NCBI RefSeq assembly: GCF_003019035.1
Contig: NZ_CP027447.1
From: Escherichia coli
Lineage (GTDB): Bacteria; Pseudomonadota; Gammaproteobacteria; Enterobacterales; Enterobacteriaceae
Direction: 5' to 3' (one strand)
Length of the DNA stretch: 64,000 nucleotides
Shown here: positions 1,923 to 49,844 of the stretch, piece by piece
How positions within the stretch are numbered: position 1 is the first letter of the stretch
Layout: each line of letters opens with the position of its first letter
The notes under the pieces: generated by a model
What the model saw: the letters and a program-made list of their open reading frames with translations, nothing else
The model's database searches: none
What the model was told of the DNA's origin: nothing
Program-made: the position numbers and the translations under genes

Positions 1923-4367
1923 TTACGCGGCTTCAACTTTTCGCACTTTCTCCGGCAACTTTACCGGCTTCGTCGCCAGCTCTTCCGGATCAAAGTCATC
2001 AACATTAATACTGCGCAGACGGCTTTCTTCAGCTTTCACAAGAATAGCGGCTTCATCTTTATCAATCAGCCCCTTCGCCAGCGCGTTATGCGCCAGTTCA
2101 TCCAGACGGGTAAATGGCAGGTTTTTACCCAGCTCTTTACAGATCCTCTGATGAATTGGGTCGGCGGCAATCACATCCACCAGTGCCTCTTCCAGTAAAC
2201 CAACCGGGTTATGCTCGCTCGGCGTCAGGTACTGACCGCGGCCAATACGTGAGCGGGTGGCGTTTGGCACTTGTAAAATCTTCGCCACTTTATGATCCAG
2301 CTTGTCAGACGGTGCCAGATAATGACGTCCGGTCGGGAAGATCACCACATTCAGCAGCCCGGCAACCACGCGGTTCGGGAAGTTTTGCAGTAAATCGTCC
2401 ATCGCCTGCTCTGCCTGATACAGCGCATCCTGTACGCCCCAGTGCACCAGCGGCAGGTCGGCTTCATTACGGCCTTCGTCGTCATAACGCTTCAGAACGG
2501 CAGAGGCGAGGTAAAGCTGGCTTAAAATATCCCCCAGACGTGCCGAGATGCGCTCGCGACGTTTCAGGCTGCCGCCCAGCACCGCCATCGAGACATCAGA
2601 AAGCAGGGCGAGGTTGGCGCTCAGGCGGTTAAGATGCTGATAGTAGCGTTTAGTGGCATCGCCGGTTGGCGTGCTGCTGGTTAAACCGCGCGTCAGGCCC
2701 AGCCAGAAGCTGCGAACTTTGTTGCTACCGACGTGACCGATATGTTTGAACAGCAGTTTATCGAACGCGTTAACGTCATTGTTCTTCGCCGCTTCCATCT
2801 CTTCCAGCACGTACGGATGGCAACGAATCGCCCCCTGGCCGAAGATCATCATACTGCGGGTCAGAATGTTGGTCCCTTCAACGGTGATGGCAATCGGTGC
2901 GCCCTGATAAGCACGGGCCAGGAAGTTGCTCTGCCCGAGCATAATGCCTTTACCGCCGGTAATATCCATTGCATCAATAATTGACTGCTGCCCGCGGTGG
3001 GTACAGTGATACTTAACGATAGCCGACAGCACGGCAGGTTTTTCACCGAGCATAATGCCGTAGGTAATCAGCGATGCCGCAGCATCCATCACGTAGGCAT
3101 TACCGGCAATACGCGCCAGCGGCTCTTCAATCCCTTCCATCTTACCAATAGAGATTTTGAACTGACGGCGGATGTGCGCATACGCACCCGTTGCCAGCGC
3201 TACCGATTTCACGCCGCCGGTTGAGTTGGAAGGCAGGGTGATACCGCGGCCTACCGAGAGGCACTCCACCAGCATCCGCCAGCCTTGCCCGGCCATTTTC
3301 GGCCCGCCGATGATGTAATCGATCGGCACGAAGACATCTTTACCGCGCGTCGGTCCGTTCTGGAACGGTACGTTCAGCGGGAAGTGGCGACGACCAATTT
3401 CCACGCCCGGCGTGGTGGTCGGGATCAGCGCACAGGTAATACCTAAATCTTCTGTACCGCCGAGTAATTTCTCCGGGTCGGAGAGTTTAAACGCCAGCCC
3501 AAGCACGGTCGCAATCGGTGCCAGCGTAATGTAACGTTTGTTCCAGGTCAGTCGCATCCCCAGCACCTGCTGGCCCTGCCACTCGCCCATGCAAACAATC
3601 CCGGTATCCGGAATCGCGCCCGCATCGGAACCCGCTTCGGGGCTGGTCAGTGCAAAGCAAGGGATCTCCTGACCACGCGCCAGACGCGGCAGATAGTGAT
3701 CTTTCTGCTCGTCAGTGCCGTAATGTTGCAGCAGCTCGCCCGGACCTAATGAGTTCGGCACGCCGACGGTAATCGCCAGGATCCCGCTCACGCCGGAGAG
3801 TTTTTGCAGCACGCGAGACTGGGCATAAGCCGAGAACTCCAGCCCGCCGTACTCTTTTTTGATGATCATCGCGAAGAAGCGATGCTCTTTAAGATACGCC
3901 CACAGCTCCGGCGGCAAATCCGCCAGCTCATGGGTAATCTGGAAATCATTCGCCATCCGGCAGGCTTCTTCTACCGGACCGTCGAGAAACGCTTGCTCTT
4001 CAGCGGTCAGGCGCGGCTGCGGATAGTTATGCAGCTTTTTCCAGTCCGGCTTGCCCTGGAACAAATCGCCTTCCCACCAGGTGGTGCCCGCATCAATCGC
4101 TTCTTTCTCCGTGCGCGACATCGGCGGCATCACCTTACGGAAACCGCGAAATACCGGCGCGGAAATCATCGACCTACGCATAGGCGCAAAGTTAAATGGC
4201 ACGAGGATAATGGCCAGAGGCACCAGTACCCACACCGACCACAGACCAGCGACGCCGAGGGCGGCTGTCCAGGCGAGCAAAATCAGACTGCTGATAAATA
4301 AGCTCACGCGGTGATAGAACAACGCGCCGAGCAGGACAACCGTAGCGAGAATACTCAAAATCATCAT
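1923..4367 (-). CDS. fadE: Acyl-CoA dehydrogenase FadE (start taken at the internal [10 protein letters not shown]... Met; ORF track extends 26 codons further)
   Basis: 814-aa ORF, N-terminal membrane segment plus acyl-CoA dehydrogenase domains; ATGATG at 4367. Confidence 0.9.
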
Positions 4368-43806: not shown

Positions 43807-44526
43807 ATGCTACAGGACGTATTATTCGAGTCAGAAGAATTTGCTGCCGCGCCGGTATTAACCCCGCAGCAGGAGAGCCACTACTTGCAGGCCTATTTAC
43901 CACTGGTGCGTAAAGTGGTGCGGCAACTTGCCCCGCAGTGTAATTGCATTATTGATCGTCAGGATATGGAACAAACGGCGTTAATGGGGCTGCTTAATGC
44001 CATTCGCCGCTACGGGCTGCCGGACGAAGGTTTTGCGGGCTATGCCGTGCACCGTATTCGCGGCGCGATCCTGGATGAGCTGCGCGCTCTCGACTGGCGA
44101 CCGCGCCAGCTGCGACAGAAATATCATCAGATGAAAGACCTGATTCGCGAAACGCGTAAAAAACTGGGGCACGAACCGGAGTGGCAGGAGCTGGCTGAGG
44201 AAGGGATCTCGCATGAAGATTATCTCGAATATCAGCAACTGGAAGGGGCGGAAACGCTCGCCAGCCTGGACGAACTGCTGAACGGCGAAGGGCCAGGCAT
44301 TCCGCTTGCTGGCAGAGACCTGGAAGATCAGTTTGTCACGCAGAAAATGCTGCAACACGCGCTTTCACAATTAAGCGAAAAAGAGCAACTGATCCTCTCC
44401 ATGTATTACCAGCATGAGATGAATCTCAAAGAGATTGCGCTGGTATTAGGGCTAACCGAGGCCCGAATTTGTCAACTGAATAAACAGATCGCGCAGAAAA
44501 TTCGTGATTTTGTCTATCCGAATTAA
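43807..44526 (+). CDS. lafS: Flagellar sigma factor (sigma28/FliA family)
   Basis: 239-aa ORF with sigma70 region 2 and region 4 HTH (...LKEIALVLGLTEARICQLNKQ...). Confidence 0.85.
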   Translation: MLQDVLFESEEFAAAPVLTPQQESHYLQAYLPLVRKVVRQLAPQCNCIIDRQDMEQTALMGLLNAIRRYGLPDEGFAGYAVHRIRGAILDELRALDWRPRQLRQKYHQMKDLIRETRKKLGHEPEWQELAEEGISHEDYLEYQQLEGAETLASLDELLNGEGPGIPLAGRDLEDQFVTQKMLQHALSQLSEKEQLILSMYYQHEMNLKEIALVLGLTEARICQLNKQIAQKIRDFVYPN

Positions 44527-44538
44527 AGTGAAGAAATC

Positions 44539-45402
44539 ATGCAAAAAATATTAGGTTTACTGGTGGTGCTCGGCTGCGTATTTGGCGGTTATTTTGAAGC
44601 GGGCGGCCAATTAGTGGCTATCTGGCAGCCTGCAGAGATAGTTATTATTTTAGGTGCTGGTTTCGGGGCGATGATTATTGGGAACCCGAAACATGTGCTG
44701 AAAGAGATTGCCCATCAAATTAAAGGCGTGATCAGTAAAAAACAGCTCGGGCCGGAGTTTCAGCGCCAGCTATTAATGTGCCTGTATGAGTTGCTTGAAA
44801 TGGTACAAAACGGCGGTCTGCGGATGTTGGATCAGCATATTGAGCAGCCGGAAGAGAGTACCGTTTTCCAGAAATACCCGCTGGTGTTAACCCAGAAGCG
44901 GCTGGTGACTTTTATTGCCGATAACTTTCGCCTGATGGCGATGGGTAAAATCGACGCCCATGAACTGGAAGGCATTCTCGATCAGGAGCTGGACACCGCT
45001 GAAGAGTCGCTGTTAACGCCGTCACGCTCGCTGCAACGGACCGCCGAAGCGATGCCGGGATTTGGTATTTGCGCGGCAGTGCTGGGCATCATCATCACCA
45101 TGCAGTCAATTGACGGTTCTATCGCCCTGATTGGCCTGAAAGTGGCGGCAGCGCTGGTGGGGACATTTTTAGGCGTGTTTATTTGCTACTGCCTGATGGA
45201 CCCGCTCGCCAACGCCATGGAACAGCAGGCGCGGGCGGAACATTCGCTGCTGGAGTGTGTGCGTACCGTGCTGGTGGCCCAGGCGGGCGGCAAACCGACG
45301 CTGCTGGCGGTGGACGCCGGGCGTAAGCTGCTGCATCTGGCGTCCAAACCGACCTTCGCCAACCTCGATGCATGGGTGAATGCGATGCTGGAGCAAGAAT
45401 AA
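44539..45402 (+). CDS. lafT: Flagellar motor stator protein MotA homologue
   Basis: 287-aa four-TM ORF. Confidence 0.85.
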   Translation: MQKILGLLVVLGCVFGGYFEAGGQLVAIWQPAEIVIILGAGFGAMIIGNPKHVLKEIAHQIKGVISKKQLGPEFQRQLLMCLYELLEMVQNGGLRMLDQHIEQPEESTVFQKYPLVLTQKRLVTFIADNFRLMAMGKIDAHELEGILDQELDTAEESLLTPSRSLQRTAEAMPGFGICAAVLGIIITMQSIDGSIALIGLKVAAALVGTFLGVFICYCLMDPLANAMEQQARAEHSLLECVRTVLVAQAGGKPTLLAVDAGRKLLHLASKPTFANLDAWVNAMLEQE

Positions 45403-45404
45403 GC

Positions 45405-46328
45405 ATGAGAAAGACGGGCAACCGCCGCGAGCGTGGGGCAAAAACCACCATCGTCCGGCGGCAGATCAAAAAGAATCATGCCGGGCACCACGGCGGGGCG
45501 TGGAAGGTAGCGTTCGCCGACTTTACCCTGGCGATGATGGCGCTATTTATGACGCTGTGGATTGTCAATAGCGTCAGTAAATCCGAGCGTGAAAGCATTA
45601 TCGCCGCGCTGCACGGGCAGTCGATTTTTAACGGTGGTGGGCTGTCGCCGTTAAATAAAATCAGCCCGTCTCATCCGTCAAAACCTGCCACCGTGGCGGT
45701 GCCGGAAGAGACGGAGAAAAAAGCGCGCGACGTCAACGAGAAAACGGCGCTGCTGAAGAAGAAATCCGCCACCGAGCTTGGTGAGCTGGCAACCAGCATC
45801 AACACCATTGCCCGTGATGCGCATATGGAAGCGAATCTGGAGATGGAGATTGTCCCGCAGGGATTACGCGTGCTGATTAAAGACGACCAGAATCGCAATA
45901 TGTTCGAACGCGGCAGCGCGCAGATTATGCCGTTCTTTAAAACGCTGCTGGTGGAGCTCGCGCCAGTGTTCGACTCGCTCGATAACAAAATTATTATTAC
46001 CGGGCATACCGATGCGATGGCCTACAAAAACAATATCTACAACAACTGGAACCTTTCGGGTGACCGCGCGCTTTCGGCTCGTCGGGTGCTGGAAGAGGCA
46101 GGAATGCCGGAAGATAAAGTGATGCAGGTGAGCGCAATGGCGGACCAGATGCTGCTGGACGCGAAAAATCCGCAAAGCGCGGGCAACCGGCGCATTGAGA
46201 TTATGGTGCTGACTAAAAGCGCGTCCGATACGCTGTATCAATACTTTGGTCAGCATGGGGATAAAGTGGTGCAGCCGCTGGTGCAAAAGCTGGATAAGCA
46301 GCAGGTGCTTTCGCAGCGAACGCGTTAA
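45405..46328 (+). CDS. lafU: Flagellar motor stator protein MotB homologue (OmpA-like C-terminal domain)
   Basis: N-terminal TM plug region and OmpA-like domain (...TGHTDAMAYKNNIYNNWNLSGDRALSARRVL...); start at MRKTGNRRE. Confidence 0.85.
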   Translation: MRKTGNRRERGAKTTIVRRQIKKNHAGHHGGAWKVAFADFTLAMMALFMTLWIVNSVSKSERESIIAALHGQSIFNGGGLSPLNKISPSHPSKPATVAVPEETEKKARDVNEKTALLKKKSATELGELATSINTIARDAHMEANLEMEIVPQGLRVLIKDDQNRNMFERGSAQIMPFFKTLLVELAPVFDSLDNKIIITGHTDAMAYKNNIYNNWNLSGDRALSARRVLEEAGMPEDKVMQVSAMADQMLLDAKNPQSAGNRRIEIMVLTKSASDTLYQYFGQHGDKVVQPLVQKLDKQQVLSQRTR

Positions 46329-46366
46329 ATGCTGAATCTTTACGCATTTCTCAAACCCTGAAATCA

Positions 46367-46382
46367 CTGTATACTTTACCAG
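46367..46382. promoter_or_regulatory. LexA (SOS) box upstream of dinB
   Basis: CTGTATACTTTACCAG matches CTG-N10-CAG. Confidence 0.75.
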
Positions 46383-46398
46383 TGTTGAGAGGTGAGCA

Positions 46399-47454
46399 AT
46401 GCGTAAAATCATTCATGTGGATATGGACTGCTTTTTCGCAGCGGTGGAGATGCGCGACAATCCTGCCCTGCGCGATATCCCTATTGCTATTGGCGGCAGC
46501 CGCGAACGTCGGGGGGTGATCAGCACCGCCAATTATCCCGCGCGTAAATTTGGCGTACGTAGCGCTATGCCGACAGGGATGGCACTCAAATTATGCCCAC
46601 ATCTCACGCTGCTTCCAGGGCGCTTTGACGCCTACAAAGAAGCCTCAAATCATATCCGCGAAATTTTCTCGCGCTATACCTCGCGCATTGAACCGTTATC
46701 ACTGGATGAAGCCTATCTCGACGTCACCGATAGTGTGCATTGCCACGGTTCTGCGACCCTCATCGCCAAGGAAATCCGTCAGACGATCTTTAACGAGCTG
46801 CAACTGACGGCATCTGCGGGCGTTGCGCCGGTAAAGTTTCTCGCCAAAATTGCTTCCGACATGAATAAACCCAACGGTCAGTTTGTGATTACGCCGGCAG
46901 AAGTTCCGGCATTTCTGCAAACCTTACCGCTGGCAAAAATTCCCGGCGTCGGCAAAGTCTCGGCGGCAAAACTGGAAGCGATGGGGCTGCGGACCTGCGG
47001 TGATGTGCAAAAGTGTGATCTGGTGACTCTGCTCAAACGTTTTGGCAAATTTGGCCGCATTTTGTGGGAGCGTAGTCAGGGGATTGACGAGCGCGACGTT
47101 AACAGTGAACGGTTGCGAAAATCCGTCGGCGTGGAACGCACGATGGCGGAAGATATTCATCACTGGTCTGAATGTGAAGCGATTATCGAGCGGCTGTATC
47201 CTGAACTTGAACGCCGTCTGGCAAAGGTAAAACCTGATTTACTGATTGCTCGCCAGGGGGTGAAATTAAAGTTTGATGATTTTCAGCAAACCACTCAGGA
47301 GCACGTCTGGCCGCGGCTGAATAAAGCTGATCTAATCGCCACCGCGCGTAAAACCTGGGATGAACGTCGCGGCGGGCGCGGTGTGCGTCTGGTGGGGCTG
47401 CATGTGACGTTACTTGACCCTCAAATGGAAAGACAACTGGTGCTGGGATTATGA
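46399..47454 (+). CDS. dinB: DNA polymerase IV (Y-family translesion polymerase)
   Basis: 351-aa ORF beginning [22 protein letters not shown]... Confidence 0.95.
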
Positions 47455-47903
47455 ATAACATACAAATAAGAAACTATCAGCCTTGCGATTTTCAGCAACT
47501 ATGCGCTATTTTCATTAGAGCAGTTACGATGACCGCCAGTCAGCACTATTCTCCACAGCAAATTGCCGCCTGGGCGCAGATTGACGAATCTCGCTGGAAA
47601 GATAAACTCGCGAAATCACAAGTGCGGGTTGCAGTCATTAATGCACAACCGGTTGGTTTTATTTCCCGCATTGAACATTATATCGATATGTTATTTGTTG
47701 ACCCGGAATACACCCGCCGTGGGGTTGCCAGCGCTTTGTTAAAACCTTTGATTAAGTCTGAATCCGAACTTACGGTGGACGCCAGCATAACCGCAAAGCC
47801 CTTTTTTGAACGTTATGGTTTTCAGACAGTTAAGCAGCAGCGCGTTGAATGCCGGGGAGCGTGGTTTATTAATTTTTATATGCGTTATAAACCGCAACAT
47901 TAA
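47451..47903 (+). CDS. yafP: GNAT family N-acetyltransferase
   Basis: 150-aa ORF overlapping the dinB stop by 4 nt. Confidence 0.85.
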
Positions 47904-47980
47904 ATCCAGCTTGCAATGAAAATAACGCCCGCCTAGTATGTGTGCGTTTTCTTATTCCACAAACTGCAAGGAGGTAAATC

Positions 47981-48081: not shown

Positions 48082-49233
48082 ATGGAATGGTACATGGGCA
48101 AATATATTCGTCCCTTATCCGATGCGGTATTTACCATCGCATCTGATGACCTGTGGATCGAGAGTTTAGCGATCCAACAATTACACACCACGGCAAATTT
48201 ACCCAACATGCAACGCGTAGTAGGGATGCCAGATTTACATCCCGGACGCGGCTATCCGATTGGCGCAGCGTTCTTCTCCGTAGGCCGTTTTTACCCGGCA
48301 CTGGTCGGCAATGATATCGGCTGCGGTATGGCGCTATGGCAAACAGATATTTTCGCGCGCAAATACAACGCCGATAAGTTTGAAAAGCGATTATCTGCGC
48401 TGGATGACGTTGCTGAAGAAAGCTGGCTGGAGGAAAACCTGCCGTCAGCGTTAGCACAGCATCCGTGGCGCAGCTCGCTGGGTTCCATCGGTGGCGGAAA
48501 CCACTTCGCAGAACTGCAACAAGTTGATCAAATTATCGACGCTGAACTGTTTGCACTGACAGGTCTGGATGCGCAGCATCTGCAACTGCTGGTTCATAGC
48601 GGCTCGAGGGGGCTGGGGCAGTCTATTTTACAGCGGCATATTGCCTCGTTTTCGCATCATGGTTTGCCTGAAGGCAGTGACGACGCGCTACGGTATATTG
48701 CGGAACATGACGATGCGCTGGCGTTTGCGCGTATTAATCGCCAGATGATCGCTTTGCGCATAATGCAACAGGTTAAGGCCACCGGAAGTCCTGTTCTGGA
48801 TGTGGCGCATAACTTTGTTAGCGCCTGTCAAATCGGCGATCAACAGGGCTGGTTGCATCGTAAAGGTGCCACGCCGGATGACAACGGTCTGGTGATTATT
48901 CCCGGTTCACGCGGTGATTACTCCTGGCTGGTTAAACCTGTTGCGAACGAAAAAACACTCCACTCGCTGGCGCATGGGGCAGGGCGTAAATGGGGGCGCA
49001 CCGAGTGTAAAGGGCGTCTGGCAGCGAAATACACGGCGACGCAACTCTCGCGTACTGAACTTGGCAGTCGGGTAATTTGTCGCGATAAACAACTCATCTT
49101 TGAAGAAGCGCCACAAGCCTATAAATCGGCTGAAAGCGTGGTGCAATGTCTGGTGCAGGCCGGTTTAATTATTCCTGTCGCGCGGCTGCGTCCGGTGCTA
49201 ACGCTCAAAAACAATGGAGGGAAAAAAGGATGA
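48082..49233 (+). CDS. rtcB2: RtcB-family RNA ligase paralogue (full-length counterpart of the K-12 ykfJ pseudogene)
   Basis: RtcB motifs (...[19 protein letters not shown]...[11 protein letters not shown]...); stop overlaps the prfH start. Confidence 0.85.
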
Positions 49234-49844
49234 TCTTGCTACAACTCTCCTCAGCTCAGGGGCCGGAAGAATGTTGCCTGGCAGTGAAAAAGGCGCTGGA
49301 CAGGTTGATTAAAGAAGCTACCCGACAAGACGTCGCGGTAACGGTGCTGGAAACAGAAACGGGTCGCTACTCTGACACACTGCGTTCGGCGCTGATTTCT
49401 CTGGATGGCGATAACGCATGGGCTCTAAGCGAAAGCTGGTGTGGCACTATCCAGTGGATTTGTCCGAGTCCGTATCGGCCTCATCATGGGCGCAAAAACT
49501 GGTTTCTGGGCATTGGGCGTTTTACCGCTGATGAGCAGGAACAATCCGACGCGATCCGTTATGAGACGCTGCGTTCGTCGGGGCCGGGCGGTCAACATGT
49601 CAATAAAACCGACTCGGCGGTACGCGCCACGCATCTGGCATCCGGTATTAGCGTGAAGGTTCAGTCAGAGCGCAGTCAGCATGCTAACAAACGGCTGGCG
49701 CGATTACTGATTGCCTGGAAGCTGGAACAACAGCAACAGGAAAATAGCGCGGCGCTGAAATCGCAGCGGCGAATGTTCCATCATCAAATTGAACGTGGCA
49801 ATCCGCGACGGATATTTACCGGGATGGCTTTTGTTGCTGTGTAA
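49230..49844 (+). CDS. prfH: Peptide chain release factor homologue PrfH (GGQ-domain protein)
   Basis: 204-aa ORF with GGQ motif (...[17 protein letters not shown]...); translationally coupled to rtcB2. Confidence 0.85.

Follow-up and report, generated by a model that had tools for sequence, protein, structure and literature searches.

Here we show that dinB and yafP form a two-gene operon in the stretch of Escherichia coli DNA analysed (64,000 nucleotides of contig NZ_CP027447.1, hereafter the window), in which the dinB TGA stop and the yafP ATG start share the sequence ATGA at positions 47451-47454 and the toxin-antitoxin genes yafN and yafO are absent. This organization is no peculiarity of the strain; it is a common and already published polymorphism, first described in 2011. 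By linking the structure of the junction, its distribution within and beyond E. coli, and the diversity of its flanks, we consider it likely that the window carries a two-gene SOS allele of dinB that belongs to an old cassette polymorphism, shaped by recurrent repeat-mediated loss and by recombination, in which translation of yafP is coupled to that of dinB. It is important to note for annotation that K-12 should not be taken as the reference for half of E. coli.

Sequences compared

Comparisons among loci within Escherichia were made with a set of 29, consisting of the window and 28 public loci; loci are referred to by number, L001 and so on, where needed. L013, truncated by a contig end, gave no information. 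K-12 was represented by its derivative ET12567, whose annotation (lafU-dinB-yafN-yafO-yafP) bears out the four-gene operon that the original prediction had stated for K-12. The four-gene state of Escherichia fergusonii was taken from PMC3105422.

The two-gene operon of the window

Both reading frames of the operon are intact, and the features identified are summarized in Table 1. DinB scored 547 bits against the NCBIfam equivalog NF002677 (cutoff 256) over residues 1-345, which identifies it as a Y-family DNA polymerase IV, and YafP scored 325 bits against the GNAT equivalog NF007338 (cutoff 146) over positions 1-150 of 150, which is its full length. YafP modulates the toxicity of nitroaromatic compounds, an effect that Pol IV counteracts. 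The YafP of the window shares 96% amino-acid identity with that of K-12; at its residue 12 (47484-47486) the window and strain SCU-301 encode Cys (TGC) and all other sampled alleles Gly (GGC).

The original prediction had read an ATGA overlap between the two genes and the absence of the yafN-yafO pair from the sequence, and both readings hold. Alignment with the K-12-derived strain leaves a single clean gap of 759 bp exactly at the dinB/yafP junction, and tblastn searches with K-12 YafN and YafO gave no match across the whole 64-kb window. Lacking an adjacent yafN (Phd/YefM-like antitoxin) and yafO (PF13957 toxin), the window does not encode a YafNO type II toxin-antitoxin system; its overlapping, directly joined genes place it with the two-gene dinB-yafP alleles of the CFT073 type.

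Table 1 Features in and around the dinB-yafP operon of the window
Feature	Position	Strand	Basis or remark
Flag-2 cluster end, sigma factor	43807-44526
Flag-2 cluster end, motA-like gene	44539-45402
Flag-2 cluster end, lafU	45372-46328
Candidate sigma-70-like promoter (TTCTCA, 16 nt, TATACT) upstream of dinB	46348..46375	+	Consensus scan only
LexA (SOS) box CACTGTATACTTTACCAGTG	46365..46384	+	CTG-N10-CAG core at 46367-46382; read from sequence
dinB, DNA polymerase IV (351 aa)	46399..47454	+	ORF list; NCBIfam NF002677; annotated as dinB in SCU-301
Single ATTATGA copy, containing the ATGA overlap	47448..47454	+	Aligned against the K-12-type and FDAARGOS_1291 loci
yafP, GNAT-family N-acetyltransferase (150 aa)	47451..47903	+	ORF list; NCBIfam NF007338
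rtcB-family RNA ligase	48082-49233		Intact; downstream of yafP
prfH, release factor H	49146-49844		Intact; downstream of yafP

The same architecture, with the ATGA overlap, without yafN and yafO, and under LexA control, is found in the two-gene operons of CFT073, UTI89, and Nissle 1917 (PMC3105422, PMC7167474), and the junction sequence GGGATTATGAATAAC is the same in the window, Nissle 1917, and other sampled two-gene strains. The window allele differs by about 2-5% from most other dinB/yafP alleles and, unlike the other two-gene systems compared, it adjoins an intact Flag-2 cluster. A variant two-gene junction was observed in E. coli BS-04 (L036, ~1330-1350), where dinB has a different 3' end (...CAACGTTGATTATGA, 6 nt shorter) and the resulting DinB of 347 aa stops 2 nt before the yafP ATG. 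The four-gene operon of K-12 (McKenzie et al. 2003; Singletary et al. 2009; both as cited in PMC3105422) contains 759 bp more than the window, with yafP beginning 9 nt after the yafO stop.

Of 5,426 complete E. coli genomes, 2,569 (47%) gave a contiguous match to a 120-nt probe centred on the direct dinB-yafP junction, and the 759-bp K-12 segment was present at 80% coverage or more in 2,831 of them (52%). These frequencies can be set beside those of Gutierrez et al. 2011, who reported that 40-50% of strains carry dinB and yafP only, 'always fused' with an ATGA overlap (PMC3105422). A collapse of yafNO out of the window during assembly or sequencing is extremely improbable, given that the same junction occurs in so many independently assembled complete genomes, that SCU-301 has the 1,801-bp region with 100% identity, and that both frames are intact.

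SOS control of the operon

The LexA box upstream of dinB, which the original prediction had described as retained, is identical to that of the K-12-type locus L001. The candidate dinB promoter is likewise the same in L001, its -10-like hexamer TATACT falling inside the LexA box, and upstream of dinB the window matches the K-12-derived strain over 70 nt without a difference; the view of the operon as a simpler SOS-controlled unit is supported to the extent that the window has the same operon without yafNO behind the same upstream sequence. Beyond Escherichia, the LexA core CTGTATACTT..CCAGT also precedes dinB in Citrobacter, Kluyvera, Pseudocitrobacter, and L023.

SOS- and LexA-dependent induction has been demonstrated experimentally for CFT073 and K-12 (PMC3105422); a YafP-YFP fusion is produced in the two-gene strain CFT073 and responds to mitomycin C by SOS induction (Gutierrez et al. 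2011, PMC3105422). From sequence identity we infer that the operon of the window would also be induced by DNA damage in a LexA-dependent manner, with one LexA-repressed promoter giving rise to a dinB-yafP transcript. A terminator scan of the + strand after yafP found nothing, and a weak hairpin with a U-rich tail at ~47924-47955 was no better than shuffled sequence (z = -0.84).

Translation of yafP

An ATGA overlap is a classic arrangement for translational termination followed by reinitiation. In the window, the sequence upstream of yafP pairs with the anti-Shine-Dalgarno sequence at -4.0 kcal/mol, via a GGGA located inside the end of dinB, compared with -7.1 kcal/mol for dinB's own site; in K-12, where yafP starts 9 nt after the yafO stop, the value is +0.4 kcal/mol and there is no Shine-Dalgarno-like pairing. 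Since yafP is devoid of a proper Shine-Dalgarno sequence, reinitiation from the dinB stop is most likely. Judging from general knowledge of such junctions, ribosomes ending at the dinB TGA would most likely restart at the overlapping ATG to make YafP, and this coupling, if operating, would tie YafP synthesis to DinB synthesis. Translational frameshifting was proposed for yafP instead by Gutierrez et al. 2011 (PMC3105422); on general grounds, it would be unneeded because yafP has its own ATG.

The 759-bp indel and its flanking repeat

The difference between the window and K-12 is a real homologous indel and not a product of chance. In K-12, the 759 bp comprise a 51-nt leader, yafN, yafO, and a spacer of 9 nt whose end is the second ATTATGA; the yafNO cassette can be described as 752 bp plus a 7-bp ATTATGA repeat, placed between the dinB stop and the yafP start. 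The extra segment of the four-gene form begins right after the dinB TGA (TGA/TGTATAC...) and ends in ...TTTAT/ATTATGA-ATAAC, such that one ATTATGA copy holds the dinB stop and the other holds the yafP start, and in four-gene strains the yafP ATG is preceded by 3 nt that duplicate the end of dinB. The repeat occurs twice in 13/13 sampled four-gene Escherichia loci and in the three-gene locus of Escherichia sp. E1V33. The repeat that bounds the E. coli cassette is 7 bp long, beyond the 4-bp ATGA noted in the literature.

The 752-bp segment codes for yafN and yafO only. Of the hallmarks of a transposon-like insertion, short direct repeats are found in Escherichia; a recombinase or transposase and terminal inverted repeats are missing, the cassette ends TGTATACT... 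and ...GAATTTAT being no inverted copies of each other when compared. On account of these missing elements and of older four-gene forms that have no repeat, we rejected a transposon origin with target-site duplication for the cassette. Base composition was also set aside as evidence of origin, as the GC content of yafP (43.7%) makes it about as AT-rich as the cassette (41.9%; dinB, 53%) and does not discriminate.

Distribution of the cassette outside E. coli

Surveyed at the same site in related lineages, the two-gene and four-gene forms both predate E. coli. Citrobacter amalonaticus (dinB-TAA-CCGCG-ATG-yafP) and two genomes of Kluyvera (dinB-TAA-CC-ATG-yafP) have no yafNO and occupy the same genomic position (with pepD-gpt-frsA downstream); L014 (dinB-TAA-A-ATG-yafP), in the same position, also has no yafNO. 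Such tight adjacency in three lineages that have no deletion-guiding repeat favours dinB-yafP as the original core. Within the genus, Escherichia marmotae and Escherichia sp. MOD1-EC7003 have an ATGA overlap identical to that of the window, and the flanks of E. marmotae are deeply diverged (8.3% nucleotide difference in dinB and 15% in yafP).

Four-gene operons occur at the dinB site in Escherichia whittamii and L005, and further afield in Pseudocitrobacter (L016-L018, 1597-3858), where the cassette of the dinB-yafN-yafO-yafP operon starts at the same base after the dinB stop, has a different 15-nt right spacer, and has no flanking repeat. In L026, the cassette is of the E. coli type with a spacer of 9 nt (ATTTAGAAG), dinB terminates in TAA, and there is no repeat; in L023 (L023-L025) dinB-yafN-yafO is followed by rtcB-prfH, yafP being absent. 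One chromosomal cassette therefore fills exactly the same inter-cistronic site in several genera. Identity of the cassette to K-12, compared with that of dinB, was 68-70% vs 77.9% in L023, 77-79% vs 80.3% in Pseudocitrobacter, 89-91% vs 84.7% in L026, and 98-99% vs 93.8% in E. whittamii, so that cassette identity ranks in the same order as dinB identity across lineages. The common left junction, together with divergence that tracks dinB, favours a single ancient insertion and, after it, a long period of co-inheritance with losses.

Distant YafNO homologues (63-69% identity) are located in unrelated variable islands of Klebsiella and other genera, which supports mobility of the toxin-antitoxin family. 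Junction regions also move between genera by recombination, as seen in the mosaic locus L015, whose yafP is 87.8% identical to that of L026 but comes with a Pseudocitrobacter-type 5' end and spacer. A similar placement of a toxin-antitoxin pair between two cistrons is known from relA-mazEF-mazG, where strains that lack the pair have the operon as an intact bicistronic unit (PMC7167474); it differs from dinB-yafNO-yafP in its locus and in its toxin-antitoxin family.

Switching between the two forms within Escherichia

Neighbour-joining trees built from dinB and from yafP mix two-gene with four-gene alleles throughout, and a comparison of 11 E. coli alleles of each kind gave an Fst of about 0 in all 100-nt windows, those touching the junction included. 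Random alleles at the dinB-yafP locus differ by about 4%. Strain VTB96929v (two-gene) and strains ExPEC_XM/Combat2C1 (four-gene) have identical flanks from -316 to +212 (528 nt), and LR14 (two-gene) and O157:H7 FRIK804 (four-gene) from -484 to +72 (556 nt). Identical flanks in both states, Fst values of about 0, and interspersed alleles together indicate clean, recent, and recurrent switching, for which deletion from one ATTATGA to the other would most simply provide the route, in agreement with the 2011 paper. Deletion at other short repeats also occurs inside the cassette, as in E1V33 (L004, about 2970-3000), in which yafO is nearly wholly deleted at TTAT, leaving dinB-yafN-yafP with an orphan antitoxin. 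The remaining yafO lesions are an internal TAG stop in FDAARGOS_1291 (L002, 3003-3401), a premature TAA in L005 (about 2940-2960), and a frameshift in L026 (1142-1560); in several lineages, the toxin gene often decays first and yafN stays intact.

Between E. coli and E. whittamii, divergence at synonymous sites amounts to 0.238 for dinB, 0.100 for yafN, 0.028 for yafO, and 0.172 for yafP, the yafO value being 6-8 times lower than those of dinB and yafP, and diversity climbs sharply at the yafO/yafP boundary among four-gene loci (L001-L007, L038-L046). Recurrent deletion alone gives no explanation for the low yafO divergence, which suggests that Escherichia lineages have recently exchanged the cassette. 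Low cassette diversity was also considered as proof of two-gene ancestry; it is not decisive, since the two states share flanks identical over more than 500 nt and Fst is about 0. Within E. coli, the synonymous diversity of dinB is itself unusually high (0.142).

Explanations for the two-gene form

In the explanation that we find likely, the dinB-yafP pairing would be the conserved core and yafNO an accessory toxin-antitoxin cassette, probably an insertion in origin, whose presence or absence would be an old polymorphism reaching beyond E. coli. The empty form would arise repeatedly and cleanly in E. coli, most simply via deletion between the two ATTATGA copies, and both operon forms would also be shuffled by homologous recombination. 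Several points count against it. The four-gene form is also old, as Pseudocitrobacter shows, and since cassette divergence follows that of dinB, a very old four-gene ancestor with many losses is conceivable. The low yafO divergence, conversely, suggests recent spread of the cassette in addition to loss. The window allele has no near-identical four-gene partner, the closest being 32 of 1,505 sites away. The model of Gutierrez et al. 2011 takes the four-gene operon as ancestral to Escherichia, possibly more widely, and every two-gene allele as a precise yafNO deletion. Their four-gene ancestor was inferred from the four-gene operon of E. fergusonii, with at least three losses on the ECOR tree (PMC3105422), and it gains from the left junction that the four-gene operons of E. 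whittamii, L005, L026, and Pseudocitrobacter have in common, from cassette divergence that tracks dinB divergence, from flank haplotypes identical in both states, and from decaying yafO in FDAARGOS_1291, L005, L026, and E1V33. It requires, however, that Kluyvera, C. amalonaticus, L014, and Escherichia independently underwent deletions, precise to the base, that left both genes intact and 0-5 nt apart, although older four-gene forms (Pseudocitrobacter, L026) have no flanking repeat that would ease such a deletion, and the very low interspecies divergence of yafO at synonymous sites misfits purely vertical descent of the cassette. We regard deletion as the sole source of two-gene alleles as conceivable, though on balance improbable.

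The opposite polarity follows from Fraikin et al. 2020, for whom the dinB-yafP pair of UTI89 and similar strains is an 'undisturbed bicistronic operon' and the toxin-antitoxin pair an insertion (PMC7167474). Applied to the window, its junction would be original, and yafNO would have been inserted in other lineages with duplication of ATTATGA and then spread by recombination. The close adjacency of the two genes in Kluyvera, Citrobacter, and L014 agrees with such a history, as do the same ATGA junction on the deeply diverged flanks of E. marmotae, the duplicate of the dinB end in the 3 nt before the yafP ATG, as expected of a target duplication, a common ancestor of the cassette (above all of yafO) much more recent than that of its flanks, and the exchange of junction regions between genera seen in L015. 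The AT-richness of the cassette relative to dinB points the same way, but yafP is also AT-rich and composition is uninformative; moreover, the cassette has neither transposase nor inverted ends, the repeat is missing from the Pseudocitrobacter and L026 forms and is no general signature of insertion, repeat-mediated deletion would leave the same repeat pattern, and the import of a cassette from another haplotype would hardly leave flanks identical over more than 500 nt. A never-occupied site in the window is, in our estimation, rather unlikely. It is similarly doubtful that the E. coli-type yafNO is a reversible, recombinase-less insertion into the ATGA junction (with a 7-bp duplication) that has spread between Escherichia species and is excised precisely via the repeat, the window retaining the original operon and not a degraded one; this reading, if true, would reverse the polarity inferred in 2011.

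For the lineage of the window itself, the original prediction had proposed alignment with K-12 and other strains as a way to decide between an ancestral state and a precise deletion. The alignment established a clean indel, and for this strain the data fit a cassette that was lost as well as one that was never present. The nearest four-gene alleles (MS6198, FDAARGOS_1291) differ from the window at 32-34 of 1,505 sites and are identical to it over only 53-72 nt around the junction; among two-gene alleles, the dinB-yafP segment is 100% identical to that of SCU-301 (L003) over 1,801 nt.

Genomic neighbourhood

Directly upstream of dinB, the window contains a complete Flag-2 (lateral flagella) cluster (24000-46328). 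This stretch is covered at 80% or more in only 814 of the 5,426 complete E. coli genomes, with a best identity of 97.7%, which places the window strain outside that genome set. In K-12 and SCU-301, only a deletion remnant of Flag-2, an flhA fragment joined to lafU, is left. SCU-301 is thus the same as the window over dinB-yafP, yet carries the Flag-2 deletion just upstream, making the region a local mosaic. On the other side of the operon, the rtcB-family RNA ligase and prfH genes are intact in the window, whereas both are truncated pseudogenes in K-12. In non-Escherichia relatives, rtcB-prfH also follows dinB-yafP (L014) or dinB-yafNO (L023).
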